DNA from: a candidate division WOR-3 bacterium | GTDB lineage: Bacteria; Hydrothermota; Hydrothermia; JBDRYB01 | Assembly: GCA_049969615.1 (NCBI GenBank) | Contig: JBMFOM010000059.1 | Location: 1 to 12,527, forward strand | DNA length: 12,527 bases | Direction of reading: 5' to 3' | In this document: piece by piece, positions 1 to 12,527 of the stretch | How positions within the stretch are numbered: position 1 is the stretch's first letter | How the letters are laid out: each line of letters begins with the position of its first letter | Program-made: the position numbers and the translations under genes | The notes under the pieces: generated by a model | What the model was told of the DNA's origin: nothing | The model's input: only the letters and a program-made list of their open reading frames with translations | Databases searched by the model: none

Positions 1-56
1 GGAAACTGGTTGACCTCGTCTTCACAGTCCTCACTACGGGGGTCTATTATGAATAA
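1..56 (+). mobile_element. 3' end of a probable IS110-family transposase/recombinase CDS (partial; gene extends off the left edge)
   Basis: Frame starting at nt 3 reads (R)KLVDLVFTVLTTGVYYE* with TAA at 54-56; the leading Arg is inferred from the nGG codon. This fits the IS110 C-terminal pattern RKLxxxx(F/Y)xVLx(S/T)Gxx(F/Y). From memory, IS621 reads RKLAQVAYGVLKSGVPFD here. Only 18 codons are visible. Confidence 0.6.
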
Positions 57-69
57 AATATTGGAGGGT

Positions 70-249
70 TGATAAAGCAATAATAACTTGCTGGTTTGGG
101 GAAGGAGCATTTTGTTCAAGAGAATAGGATCCTAAGAGGGGGCCACTTGAAAAATCCCACCGAGAGAGCATTTCATCAAAGTTCTCTTCTAGCTACGATG
201 AGCCTCCCAGATGGGTACAGGGGGCAAACAGGGATTTTTCAGGGGTTTC
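70..249 (+). repeat. Dispersed ~185-bp repeat (MITE/REPIN-like), copy 1, lacking the outer GAGACCTC end
   Basis: Colinear with 2496-2672 and with the reverse complements of 4458-4633 and 11731-11910. Internal inverted repeat TGAAAAATCCC (148-158) / GGGATTTTTCA (231-241). Ends in CAGGGGTTTC. Confidence 0.95.
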
Positions 250-2487: not shown

Positions 2488-2672
2488 GAGACCTCTGATA
2501 AAGTATTAATAACTTACTGGCTTGAGCCAGGAGCGCTTTGTCCAAGAGAACAGGGTTCTCAGAGGGTCCTTGAAAAATCTCGCCAAGGGGACATTTCCTC
2601 AAGGTTCCCTTCTAGCTACGATGAGGCTTTTGGATGGGGACCAAGGGCAAGCCGGGATTTTTCAGGGGTTTC
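2488..2672 (+). repeat. Dispersed ~185-bp repeat, copy 2 (complete)
   Basis: GAGACCTCTGATAAAG...GGGATTTTTCAGGGGTTTC; the outer ends are imperfect inverted repeats (12/15); inner IR at 2568-2581 / 2654-2667. Confidence 0.95.
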
Positions 2673-4373: not shown

Positions 4374-4457
4374 AACAACGGCACACCCGCGGCTGTCCGG
4401 GAGTCTCGTTTCTTCGGTCTGCAAGTTCCCCGCTAATGTCCATGAGACAAAATTATG

Positions 4458-4641
4458 GAAACCCCTGAAAAATCCCGGTTTGTCCCTGGTCCCATCCGGG
4501 AGCCTCATCATAACCAGAAGAGAACCCTGAGGAAATGCCATTGTTGTGGGATTTTTCAGGGGGCCTCTTAGAACCCTGTTCTCTTGGACAAAGTGCTCCT
4601 CCCCCAAACCAGTGAGTTATTACTACCTTGTCAGAGGTCTC
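4458..4641 (-). repeat. Dispersed ~185-bp repeat, copy 3 (complete), flanked by the direct repeat AATTATG(G)
   Basis: GAAACCCCTGAAAAATCCC...TCAGAGGTCTC on the + strand; perfect 15-bp IR at 4462-4476 / 4548-4562; AATTATGG at 4451-4458 and 4642-4649. Confidence 0.95.
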
Positions 4642-4652
4642 AATTATGGTTG

Positions 4653-10313: not shown

Positions 10314-11732
10314 ATGCCAGAGATAAAGGCCCTGAAGTGCGAGTCGTGTGGCGCGCCCCTGGAAGCCGAGCTAGGCCAGACCATGCTCAAGTGTCCGTTC
10401 TGCGGCACAGTGAACATGATCAAGCCTGATCCGGGGGAAACGGAGACCAGGATTGAGCTGAGCGCGGTGGTTGAGACCACTGTTGAAGAGGTTGTCAAGA
10501 TTACTCCTCCTCCTCCTCCAACAACGACATCAAAGATCATCGGCGGCCTCATTGCCGCCGTTATACTCCTCAGCATAATAGGCCCCACTATAGCCGTGGT
10601 TGTTGCCGAGATTATCGGCAAGATGAGGGGCCCGAATTACTCCCTCTTACAGGGTGAGATCAGGGGCGACAAGATGGCCGCGGTTCTCTACGGGGACTCA
10701 AAATACTACCTGGCGCGCGTGAATCCCAAAACTGGAAGATTGATCTGGCGAAAGGAAATAGGCAATGGCTACTCGCTCAGAAGGATAAGCCTTGGGGAAG
10801 ATAGATTCTATACCTTGTCAGATGATGGCTCCCTGAGATGTTATGACCTGGACAGAGGAGACATTCTCTGGGAAGAGAACCCGGGCGCGCTTGTTTATCT
10901 GGAAAAGAACCTCATCCCTTTAGGCGATGGGCTTTGTTTCCTGGGCAATGATGATACGCTGAGGTTCTTTGATGGGAATGGGAAGCAGACCATGCGCGTG
11001 TTTCAGAATGACTGGCGCTCGTTCAGCGTCTACGGCGATAAGATATATCTAGCCCAGGACAGTCTGATAAGGGCATTCAACCCAAAAAACGGCAAGGTGC
11101 TGTTTACCGTGAGGATGGGCCATGGCCTCCGGCCCTTCGGTCCTTATGTCATGGGCAACGATTACTATACTAACAAGACACGAATCTTCAGAATTGACCC
11201 CCAAAATGGCTCCGCACTTTGGCAAATATCATTCCCCGGCGATTACTCCTTTGATTCCCTTTTAGTCACAGGCGGAGGTCTCTATCTCCTTGATGATTCC
11301 ATCGTTTCCATTAATCCAACCAATGGCCAGACATTGGGAGTCCTCCATGATGAGGCCTGGGAACCCACGAAGATTATCTCCGGGGACAAGGCCCTATATG
11401 TTATTCTCAGAAGGACGAAAGGCGTAACAACCTACAGGCTCATTGCCGTGAACCCCGGCTCCCTTGCAAAGAAATGGGGCGAAGAACTCAAAGACACCCT
11501 CATTATAGTTGGGGATGGTGTTTTTATCGTTGACACAGCCTCCGGGAGCATTATCGCGAGGAAGCTGGACCCTGAAACCGGCAAGGAACTCTGGATGCAG
11601 AGACATAAGATGAGGTATGTTGCTATATCAACGCTTTATCTTGTGGGCGACAACCTCATAATAGGTTCCCGGGAGACGATTTCCCTGAGAACTAGGGATG
11701 GAAAGAAGGCCTGGAAGGGGATAATGAAGTAA
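10314..11732 (+). CDS. Zn-ribbon + single TM + PQQ-like (BamB-type) beta-propeller protein
   Basis: CESC...CPFC, a Pro/Thr linker, one hydrophobic helix, then repeated (D/N)PxTG..LW blades (NPKTGRLIW, DLDRGDILW, DPQNGSALW, DPETGKELW). Confidence 0.85.
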   Translation: MPEIKALKCESCGAPLEAELGQTMLKCPFCGTVNMIKPDPGETETRIELSAVVETTVEEVVKITPPPPPTTTSKIIGGLIAAVILLSIIGPTIAVVVAEIIGKMRGPNYSLLQGEIRGDKMAAVLYGDSKYYLARVNPKTGRLIWRKEIGNGYSLRRISLGEDRFYTLSDDGSLRCYDLDRGDILWEENPGALVYLEKNLIPLGDGLCFLGNDDTLRFFDGNGKQTMRVFQNDWRSFSVYGDKIYLAQDSLIRAFNPKNGKVLFTVRMGHGLRPFGPYVMGNDYYTNKTRIFRIDPQNGSALWQISFPGDYSFDSLLVTGGGLYLLDDSIVSINPTNGQTLGVLHDEAWEPTKIISGDKALYVILRRTKGVTTYRLIAVNPGSLAKKWGEELKDTLIIVGDGVFIVDTASGSIIARKLDPETGKELWMQRHKMRYVAISTLYLVGDNLIIGSRETISLRTRDGKKAWKGIMK

Positions 11733-11918
11733 AGCCCCTGAAAAATCCGGTTTGTCCTTTGTTCCCATCCGGAAGCCTCATCATAGCTAGAATGGAACCC
11801 TCAGGAAATGCCATTGTTGCGGGATTTTTCAGGGGTCCCTCTTAGTAGACCCTTGTTCCCTTGGACAAAATGTTCCTGGCCCAAACCAGTAAGTTATTTC
11901 TACTTTGCCAGAGGTCTT
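11731..11918 (-). repeat. Dispersed ~185-bp repeat, copy 4 (complete); overlaps the stop codon of the propeller gene
   Basis: AAAGCCCCTGAAAAATCC...GGGATTTTTCAGGGG...CAGAGGTCTT; about 85% identical to copy 3 by manual alignment. Confidence 0.95.
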
Positions 11919-11947: not shown

Positions 11948-12364
11948 TTAGTGGAAACTCAATACCCGTAAGAGCCAGAGCGCGGCTACAGCGCGTTTCT
12001 CAAAGATACCGACCGTGCCTTCCATGTGGCCTATTGTTCTGTATGATTCGTCAGTTATGTCCCCGTCATCCTCTATGTGCAGTATTGTCCTGTAGCTCTC
12101 ATCCTTGACATCTCCATCGTCCTCAACATAGCCGACTATCCTGTATGAGGCATTTTTTATGTCCCCGTCATCATCTATATAGCCTATGGTCGTATAGCTG
12201 GCGTCCTTGATGTCTCCGTCGTCCTCAACATAGGCTATTGTGCGGTAGTTGGCGTCCTTGATGTCTCCGTCATCCTCCATGTAAGCTATGGTCCTGTAAC
12301 TGCCGTCCTTTATGGTTATATCCTCGGCAAAAACCGGCGCGCTGAGCATAAGTAATACTATCAT
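11948..12364 (-). CDS. Small secreted protein with six 17-aa repeats (beta-flower-like)
   Basis: Short hydrophobic signal MIVLLMLSAPVFA, repeats of GDIKDASYRTIGYVEDD, and a hydrophobic C-terminal helix. Confidence 0.8.
   Translation of the reverse strand: MIVLLMLSAPVFAEDITIKDGSYRTIAYMEDDGDIKDANYRTIAYVEDDGDIKDASYTTIGYIDDDGDIKNASYRIVGYVEDDGDVKDESYRTILHIEDDGDITDESYRTIGHMEGTVGIFEKRAVAALWLLRVLSFH
12017..12319 (-). repeat. Intragenic 51-bp tandem repeat, about 6 units
   Basis: Recurring ttgatgtctccgtc(a/g)tcctc-like units at a 51-bp period; variation is largely synonymous or conservative. Confidence 0.85.
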
Positions 12365-12481
12365 ATTTTAATTATTTAGCCTGACCATGAACTAATTCAA
12401 TCAGTTCTAGAGCTCACCCGACACATCTCAGCCCTCTATGGATTGAAGGCGCGGCCGTGGCACAGGGGCCTCGCAATCGGG

Positions 12482-12526
12482 TCAGGTCTCTGAGGGTATG
12501 TAGCCCCTCTGGAGGTCCTTGACCAG
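12482..12526 (-). CDS. Possible 3' end of a gene entering from the right edge
   Basis: Reads LVKDLQRGYIPSET*; too short to assign. Confidence 0.3.
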   Translation of the reverse strand: MVKDLQRGYIPSET

Positions 12527-12527
12527 G

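Follow-up and report, generated by a model that had tools for sequence, protein, structure and literature searches.

A young, probably IS110-type insertion sequence, apparently guided by a bridge RNA, at the terminus of a putative MITE family in an uncultured bacterium

The DNA analysed here, which we call the window, is a 12,527-nt contig (C59) of the 203-contig, 2.06-Mb assembly G000, and its first 69 nt probably form the right-hand end of a young, high-copy insertion sequence (IS) of the IS110 subgroup, apparently guided by a bridge RNA into the terminus of a MITE. In the arrangement that we propose, the genome would hold some 10–13 full copies of this element, the interior of which is unassembled, and each copy would consist of a long left end encoding the bridge RNA, followed by the recombinase gene and a right end of 13 nt. 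Insertion would take place at the 12-nt sequence (G/A)AGACC(C/T)C-TG-AT, which forms the outer left terminal inverted repeat of a MITE of about 185 nt. With more than 100 copies or fragments, this MITE would supply the targets, the 12-nt site being rare elsewhere.

The junction at the start of the window

The window opens within the 3' end of a putative recombinase ORF (1..56, plus strand), the frame of which is open at the contig start. Its 17 codons and stop, read as AAA CTG GTT ... TAT TAT GAA TAA, yield the peptide KLVDLVFTVLTTGVYYE*, with the TAA at 54-56. The stop codon is followed by the non-coding right end (RE) of the element, 13 nt long (57..69, plus strand) and identical at nine contig ends. 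Within it, TTGGAGGGT at 61-69 (plus strand) is the putative left-donor arm; it is the sole RE sequence retained in both of the mini-elements described below, and its last GT is complementary to an AC in the left-end loop. Next comes the core dinucleotide TG at 70..71 (plus strand), which is found at both junctions of the element; the right junctions read GGAGGGT + TG + AT.

With this core, the first copy of a repeated sequence begins. It starts with TGATAAAG at 70-77, its first 8 nt being absent. A preliminary description of this DNA had placed the end of the ORF at 56 and the start of repeat similarity 13 nt later, and on re-reading all of its coordinates were correct. It had also pointed out that copy 1 alone lacks a (G/A)AGACCTC terminus. 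Alignment of the four window copies bears this out: copies 2-4 start with GAGACCTC, GAGACCTC, and AAGACCTC, respectively, and in copy 1 the place of these outer 8 nt is occupied by the end of the element, which is unrelated to the repeat.

The target repeat

The repeat is about 185 nt long and gives 165 BLAST matches in the 2.06-Mb assembly. Its termini are imperfect inverted repeats, since GAGACCYCTGATAAAG at one end agrees with the reverse complement of the other, GAAACCCCTGAAAAAT, at 14 of 16 positions. Among the 20 relatives searched, a single same-genus genome showed three weak partial matches and the remaining genomes showed none; a search of the repeat against Rfam returned no match. 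Among these genomes, the family is expanded solely in the one analysed here, and we read it as a putative lineage-specific MITE.

The window contains four copies. Copy 1 (70..249, plus strand) is the right part of an interrupted copy, whose right terminal inverted repeat, CAGGGGTTTC, occupies 240-249. Copies 2 (2488..2672, plus strand), 3 (4458..4641, minus strand), and 4 (11731..11918, minus strand) are intact. The terminus of copy 2, GAGACCTCTGAT at 2488-2499, is a perfect and empty target site. Copy 3 has the terminus GAGACCTCTGAC, with a mismatch to the target in the last base, and copy 4 has AAGACCTCTGGC, with mismatches at position 1 and within the right arm. Copy 3 is bracketed by a 7-nt direct repeat, AATTATG, at 4451-4457 and 4642-4648, which is likely a target-site duplication. 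When the three intact window copies were compared, no flanking duplication was seen at copies 2 and 4.

The 12-nt target GAGACCYCTGAT occurs at 65 unoccupied sites in the assembly, mostly MITE ends, versus about 0.5 expected. This agrees with a proposal in the preliminary description, according to which the other copies of the repeat are empty targets. As a separate observation, the 16-nt terminus GAGACCYCTGATAAAG also heads quite different interiors, for example at C2:170 (minus strand), C7:5376 (plus strand), C27:242 (minus strand), and C142:1396 (plus strand), so that other elements or fragments share the MITE end and present the same target.

A young element in old repeats

The first 69 nt of the window, hereafter the tail, are present at 10 contig ends. 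At seven of these a full repeat copy starts at the identical base after the tail, and at an eighth (C82) the tail is followed by an internally deleted copy. On C12 it is followed by TGAT and then by unique DNA, which makes this the single insertion outside a repeat, with TGAT kept; on C63 the tail is broken off at position 60. Nine copies of the tail, compared in 36 pairs, are 99.6% identical (2121 of 2129 positions), whereas identity over the first 100 nt past the junction is no more than 77.5% (71-85% in 21 pairs among the seven copies followed by a full MITE). A step in identity from 99.6% to about 77% at one base indicates that a young element entered diverged, pre-existing repeats.

The preliminary description had offered two readings of this junction. 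According to the first, an IS110 element inserted into the terminus of the repeat, and the data support this reading: the identity step, the presence of the missing 8 nt at the far end of the element, and loop guides that match the target (both described below) all speak for it. According to the second, the repeat belongs to the element and forms its long non-coding end downstream, in the manner of IS1111-type elements, and the free copies are transposase-less derivatives. This would account for the finding that 7 of the 10 tails precede the repeat in the same register, and IS110-linked MITE-like modules do exist, as the passages on MITEPpu9 cited here describe (PMC12288879). We nevertheless regard this second reading as very improbable and reject it, because a shared downstream end is not expected to produce the fall in identity that occurs precisely at the junction. 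Moreover, one tail stands before unique DNA, the right end measures only 13 nt, the 8 nt missing from copy 1 are at the other end of the element, and the free copies have inverted termini of their own, GAGACCYCTGATAAAG and CAGGGGTTTC. The layout also differs from that of IS1111, as there are 13 nt from the stop codon to the core and the loop with the guides is part of the left end rather than downstream.

Nearly all ends of the 203-contig assembly belong to repeated-end families, and one might therefore take the joining of tail and repeat for an assembly artefact, a chimeric contig end arising from collapsed repeats. To this we assign an almost negligible probability, given that the same junction is formed with seven different diverged repeat copies and in two other contexts, and that it is also present inside two contigs, in the mini-elements.

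In none of the 40 relatives searched was the tail (127 nt) or the left end (125 nt) found. Three patterns, namely the exact 36-nt tail, a degenerate 12-codon version, and the left-end scaffold with the guide masked, each gave no match in metagenome and genome contig collections, which may omit records of the genome analysed here.

The left end and the mini-elements

The left end of the element was found by clustering all contig ends, which yielded one family with 13 true members. Read outward, its members proceed through ...GTGATATACA to GGGGTCTC or GAGGTCTC and then into unrelated flanks. Read in the direction of the element, the 13 left junctions thus consist of flank plus GAGACCCC (eight contig ends), GAGACCTC (four), or AAGACCCC (one), and all 13 contain the left arm (G/A)AGACC(C/T)C. 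The preliminary description had proposed that the 8 nt missing from copy 1 be sought at the far end of the element; they are indeed present there, on 13 other contig ends, TG-joined to the left end, the pair after the left arm being TG in 12 of the 13 and TT in one. The left end itself starts directly after the core with TATATCAC, in a longer reading TATATCACTTTACC..., and the TG of the left junctions is also the one found in front of ATAAAG on the right. The element termini are not inverted repeats of each other (TATATCAC on the left, TTGGAGGGT on the right); in place of a longer target duplication, a 2-nt core, TG in 12 of the 13 left and in nine right junctions, is common to both sides, and both sequence and orientation of the target are fixed.

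Two transposase-less mini copies of 165 nt provide the connection between the ends. They consist of the left end with the target loop, followed by TTGGAGGGT-TG-ATAAA of a MITE, and are located at C12:12443-12607 (minus strand) and at C3 ~23290-23455 (minus strand), the locus pair L026/L028, both at the same MITE site. As the mini-elements join the left end to TTGGAGGGT-TG, both end families belong to one element; this left-right linkage is drawn from the mini-elements and the complementary MITE halves, without a full-length assembled copy. The assembly was also searched for a circle junction, and none was found.

Some junctions are irregular. The left junction with a TT core is the right end of C156, and the mini-element on C3 has the left flank TGGCCTCC instead of GAGACCYC. 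These may reflect off-target insertion, events at half-sites, or changes that came later. That the deletion junction is identical at the two mini-element loci suggests either movement in trans or recurrent deletion at the guide-encoding repeat. A more speculative possibility, to which we give little weight, is that the mini-elements are not random deletions and would instead be products of recombination between the true right end and left-donor-guide DNA, which share the same 9-11 nt (TTGGAGGGT-TG), and that the resulting target-loop cassettes were afterwards mobilised in trans into this one MITE site. If so, the bridge-RNA gene would constitute a built-in pseudo-donor half-site that sheds mobile cassettes containing the target loop only.

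A putative guide RNA in the left end

The left end, numbered here from the first base after the core, is assembled to 114 nt in the full copies. It contains TATAAT at 22-27, GAGACCTCTG at 88-97, and ATCAAC at 117-122. The 80 nt from position 64 to 143 have a predicted folding energy of −33.9 kcal/mol (z −3.8), and none of 200 shuffled sequences was as stable; the whole 169-nt mini-element folds at a z of only −1.8. In the predicted fold, an internal loop is enclosed by a basal stem of 13 bp and another stem of 4 bp, and there is a small distal hairpin with a 3-bp stem. Because the left-end copies are nearly identical, the fold is without covariation support, and the upstream regions of four distant IS110 relatives were too divergent to align for covariation. 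An Rfam search of the left end returned nothing relevant.

The internal loop carries GAGACCUCUG on its 5' side and AUCAAC on its 3' side. The former is the top-strand sequence of the left target arm plus core, 10 nt in all; when left ends were shuffled, 3 of 20,000 contained a match of 10 nt to the left target. On the 3' side, AUCA is complementary to TG-AT, that is, to the core and right arm of the target, and the adjoining AC is complementary to the GT with which the element's right end finishes, but not to the TC or CC of the target. Folding the upstream end had been put forward as a check on the two readings of the junction, and the sides of the loop match GAGACCTCTG and TGAT as the guides of IS621 would. 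The very short left end devoid of a bridge RNA that would have accompanied the IS1111-type reading is not what we find; instead, the left end is long and contains a guide-bearing loop.

The mode of pairing described for IS621 suggests a function for these matches. In the passages of the two IS621 papers cited here, 8-9 nt on the loop's 5' side pair with the bottom strand and 4-7 nt on its 3' side with the top strand; both guides include the core, the left target guide (LTG) comprising nine bases and the right target guide (RTG) four (PMC11208160). After strand exchange, donor positions 6-7 are paired by two handshake guide (HSG) bases that lie 3' of the RTG, and pairing of these bases to the cognate target has to be avoided (PMC11208158). 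By analogy, GAGACCUCUG on the 5' side of the loop would pair with the target's bottom strand. At the variable target position, a guide U could pair with A or G and thereby cover both alleles, which fits the occurrence of insertions in both GAGACCTC and GAGACCCC ends. On the 3' side, AUCA would form base pairs with TG-AT on the top strand, and AC would pair with the GT of the element's own right end after strand exchange, acting as the handshake guide. A circular intermediate presumably forms, and the bridge RNA is presumably expressed. The donor-binding loop would be expected to have GGAGGGUUG on its 5' side and a sequence complementary to TG-TATATCAC on its 3' side. The only candidate for a part of such a loop comes from the mini-elements, which end in TTGGAGGGT-TG; a left donor guide would have this sequence, but it may be just the right end, and no right donor guide was seen.

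With respect to transcription, a full sigma-70-type promoter was not found in the inserted context. A promoter formed at the junction was also considered and dismissed: the hexamer spanning the joined ends fits TTGACA at only three of six positions, and no promoter passed the scan. The sequence TATAATTTC at left-end positions 22-30, which holds this TATAAT, occurs 115 times in the genome versus 9 expected, often just upstream of start codons in the flanks examined.

The recombinase family

Contig C12 lengthens the C-terminal peptide encoded at the window start to 35 aa. When this peptide was compared with 18,950 NCBIfam models, the sole match was NF033542, a model of the RNA-guided transposase of the IS110 family, at E 0.0039, with a score of 16.4 bits that is far below the whole-protein cut-off of 140, as expected of a 35-aa fragment. 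The alignment covers profile positions 311-341 of 343, i.e., the C-terminal end of the model. A Pfam search of the peptide gave no match, and phmmer against 1.84 billion representatives returned one match, a 711-aa repetitive protein, which we judged spurious. When 64 genomes from the class and 272 from the phylum were searched in six frames, there were eight foreign ORF matches, six of which are IS110 proteins with a PF02371 domain (and PF01548 where the ORF is complete); in these, the matching tail, 37-49% identical, follows just after PF02371. The other two matches represent one TrmB-type regulator aligned over 21 aa. In the whole assembly, neither PF01548 nor PF02371 had a match, the element interior is in no contig, and no contig overlaps the inner part of the tail.

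The preliminary description had considered the peptide typical of IS110 C-termini, a view that the match to NF033542 and the alignment with six IS110 protein tails corroborate. Assignment of the element to IS110 is thus supported, if indirectly, by 35 C-terminal residues together with the anatomy of the element, and the complete recombinase would presumably contain DEDD and Ser domains.

The element might instead belong to another site-specific family, using a tyrosine or serine recombinase or resembling IS200/IS605, in which case the guide matches and the likeness to IS110 C-termini would be coincidental. The lack of a PF01548 or PF02371 match in the assembly, the low absolute score of the peptide, and a guide fold without covariation would all be compatible with this, but we consider it unlikely. 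Coincidence would have to extend to three independent matches that agree with the IS621 loop in order, strand sense, and length, to a 10-mer match as rare as that found in the shuffled left ends, and to the only protein-family match being to IS110, with the alignment at the end of the model where it should be. The ends, too, argue for an IS110-type element, in that they are not inverted repeats and have 2 nt common to both junctions.

Discussion

Elements of the IS110 family are known from several kinds of repeated targets. IS621 of E. coli resides in REP sequences, and for IS4321 and IS5075, which belong to the IS1111 group of the family, the targets are terminal inverted repeats in Tn21-type transposons. 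Members of the IS1111 group have subterminal repeats and a guide RNA downstream. The element described here resembles IS4321/IS5075 in its probable membership of the IS110 family and in its specific insertion, always at one position and in one orientation, into an inverted terminus that belongs to another transposable element; it differs from them in that its guide RNA would lie upstream, its right end is 13 nt long, and its target is a MITE rather than a Tn3-family transposon.

The likeness to IS621, as far as the cited passages describe that element, extends to several features. Both have a long left end with a stem-loop, in which a left guide of top-strand sense includes the core (10 nt here, nine in IS621), and a 4-nt right guide, again including the core, is followed by two handshake bases that fit the donor and not the target. 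Both also have a short right end, a 2-nt core at both junctions, and a repeated intergenic target. The differences, within the same passages, are that the core is CT in IS621 and TG here and that the target here is the terminal inverted repeat of a MITE. In addition, the host here is an uncultured bacterium of another phylum, and the element is known from it without the recombinase body or the donor-binding loop.

Further parallels come from Pseudomonas putida. In the passages of PMC12288879 cited here, ISPpu9 is a multicopy IS110-family element found in one intergenic repeat family, and MITEPpu9 is a transposase-less module that retains the element ends and appears to be mobile in trans; ISPpu10, described in a preprint, is likewise a multicopy IS110-family element. 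Both ISPpu9 and ISPpu10 reside in REP-type repeats. Our element shares with these, to the extent that those passages cover them, its presence in many copies in one repeat family and the existence of transposase-less modules with element ends. MITEPpu9 differs, by the same account, in that an accessory sRNA gene is located downstream of tnp there, whereas the mini-elements here consist of the left end, which represents the target-loop half of the presumed bridge RNA, plus the last 9 nt of the RE. IS110-family elements in one repeat family, and MITE-like modules moved by them, are thus known already, and the mechanism proposed here is not new. What is new is a further probable member of this kind in an unusual host, with a guide code that is cleanly readable from its junctions.

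The element would add a natural set of recombinase, guide, and target from a little-studied uncultured lineage, in which the left target, right target, and handshake guides can all be read from genomic junctions; of this set, the recombinase sequence would be the part of value for engineering. One guide U appears to serve two target alleles through wobble pairing, and the system would represent an IS110-type element that lives on the inverted terminus of a MITE family. On the practical side, the multiplicity of the element accounts for part of the fragmentation of the assembly into 203 contigs.

Other features of the assembly and the window

Clustering of the contig ends placed nearly all of them in a small number of families, with 82, 75, 48, 15, 14, 12, 9, 7, 6, and 6 members. 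The genome therefore harbours several high-copy mobile elements whose interiors are absent from the assembly. The other end of the window, at about 12400-12527, is itself the end of another multicopy element, that of the 82-member family, which is also found on C133; by synteny with the genome G001, C133 lies near the left side of the window. Several end families finish with (G)AAGGATCAC before variable flanks (e.g., C107_L, C1_L, C115_R, and C109_L), which suggests that they are related elements with a common terminus.

In the same-genus genome G001, the orthologous intergenic region beside the first gene of the window (on C162, locus L050) is about 190 nt long and contains neither MITE nor IS. 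When synteny with G001 was used to pair left- and right-end contigs, another repeated element was also seen to lie between in G000. Finally, a 138-aa ORF at 11948-12364 of the window (minus strand) contains a tandem array at 12057-12314, made up of 51-nt (17-aa) units that are 75-77% alike.
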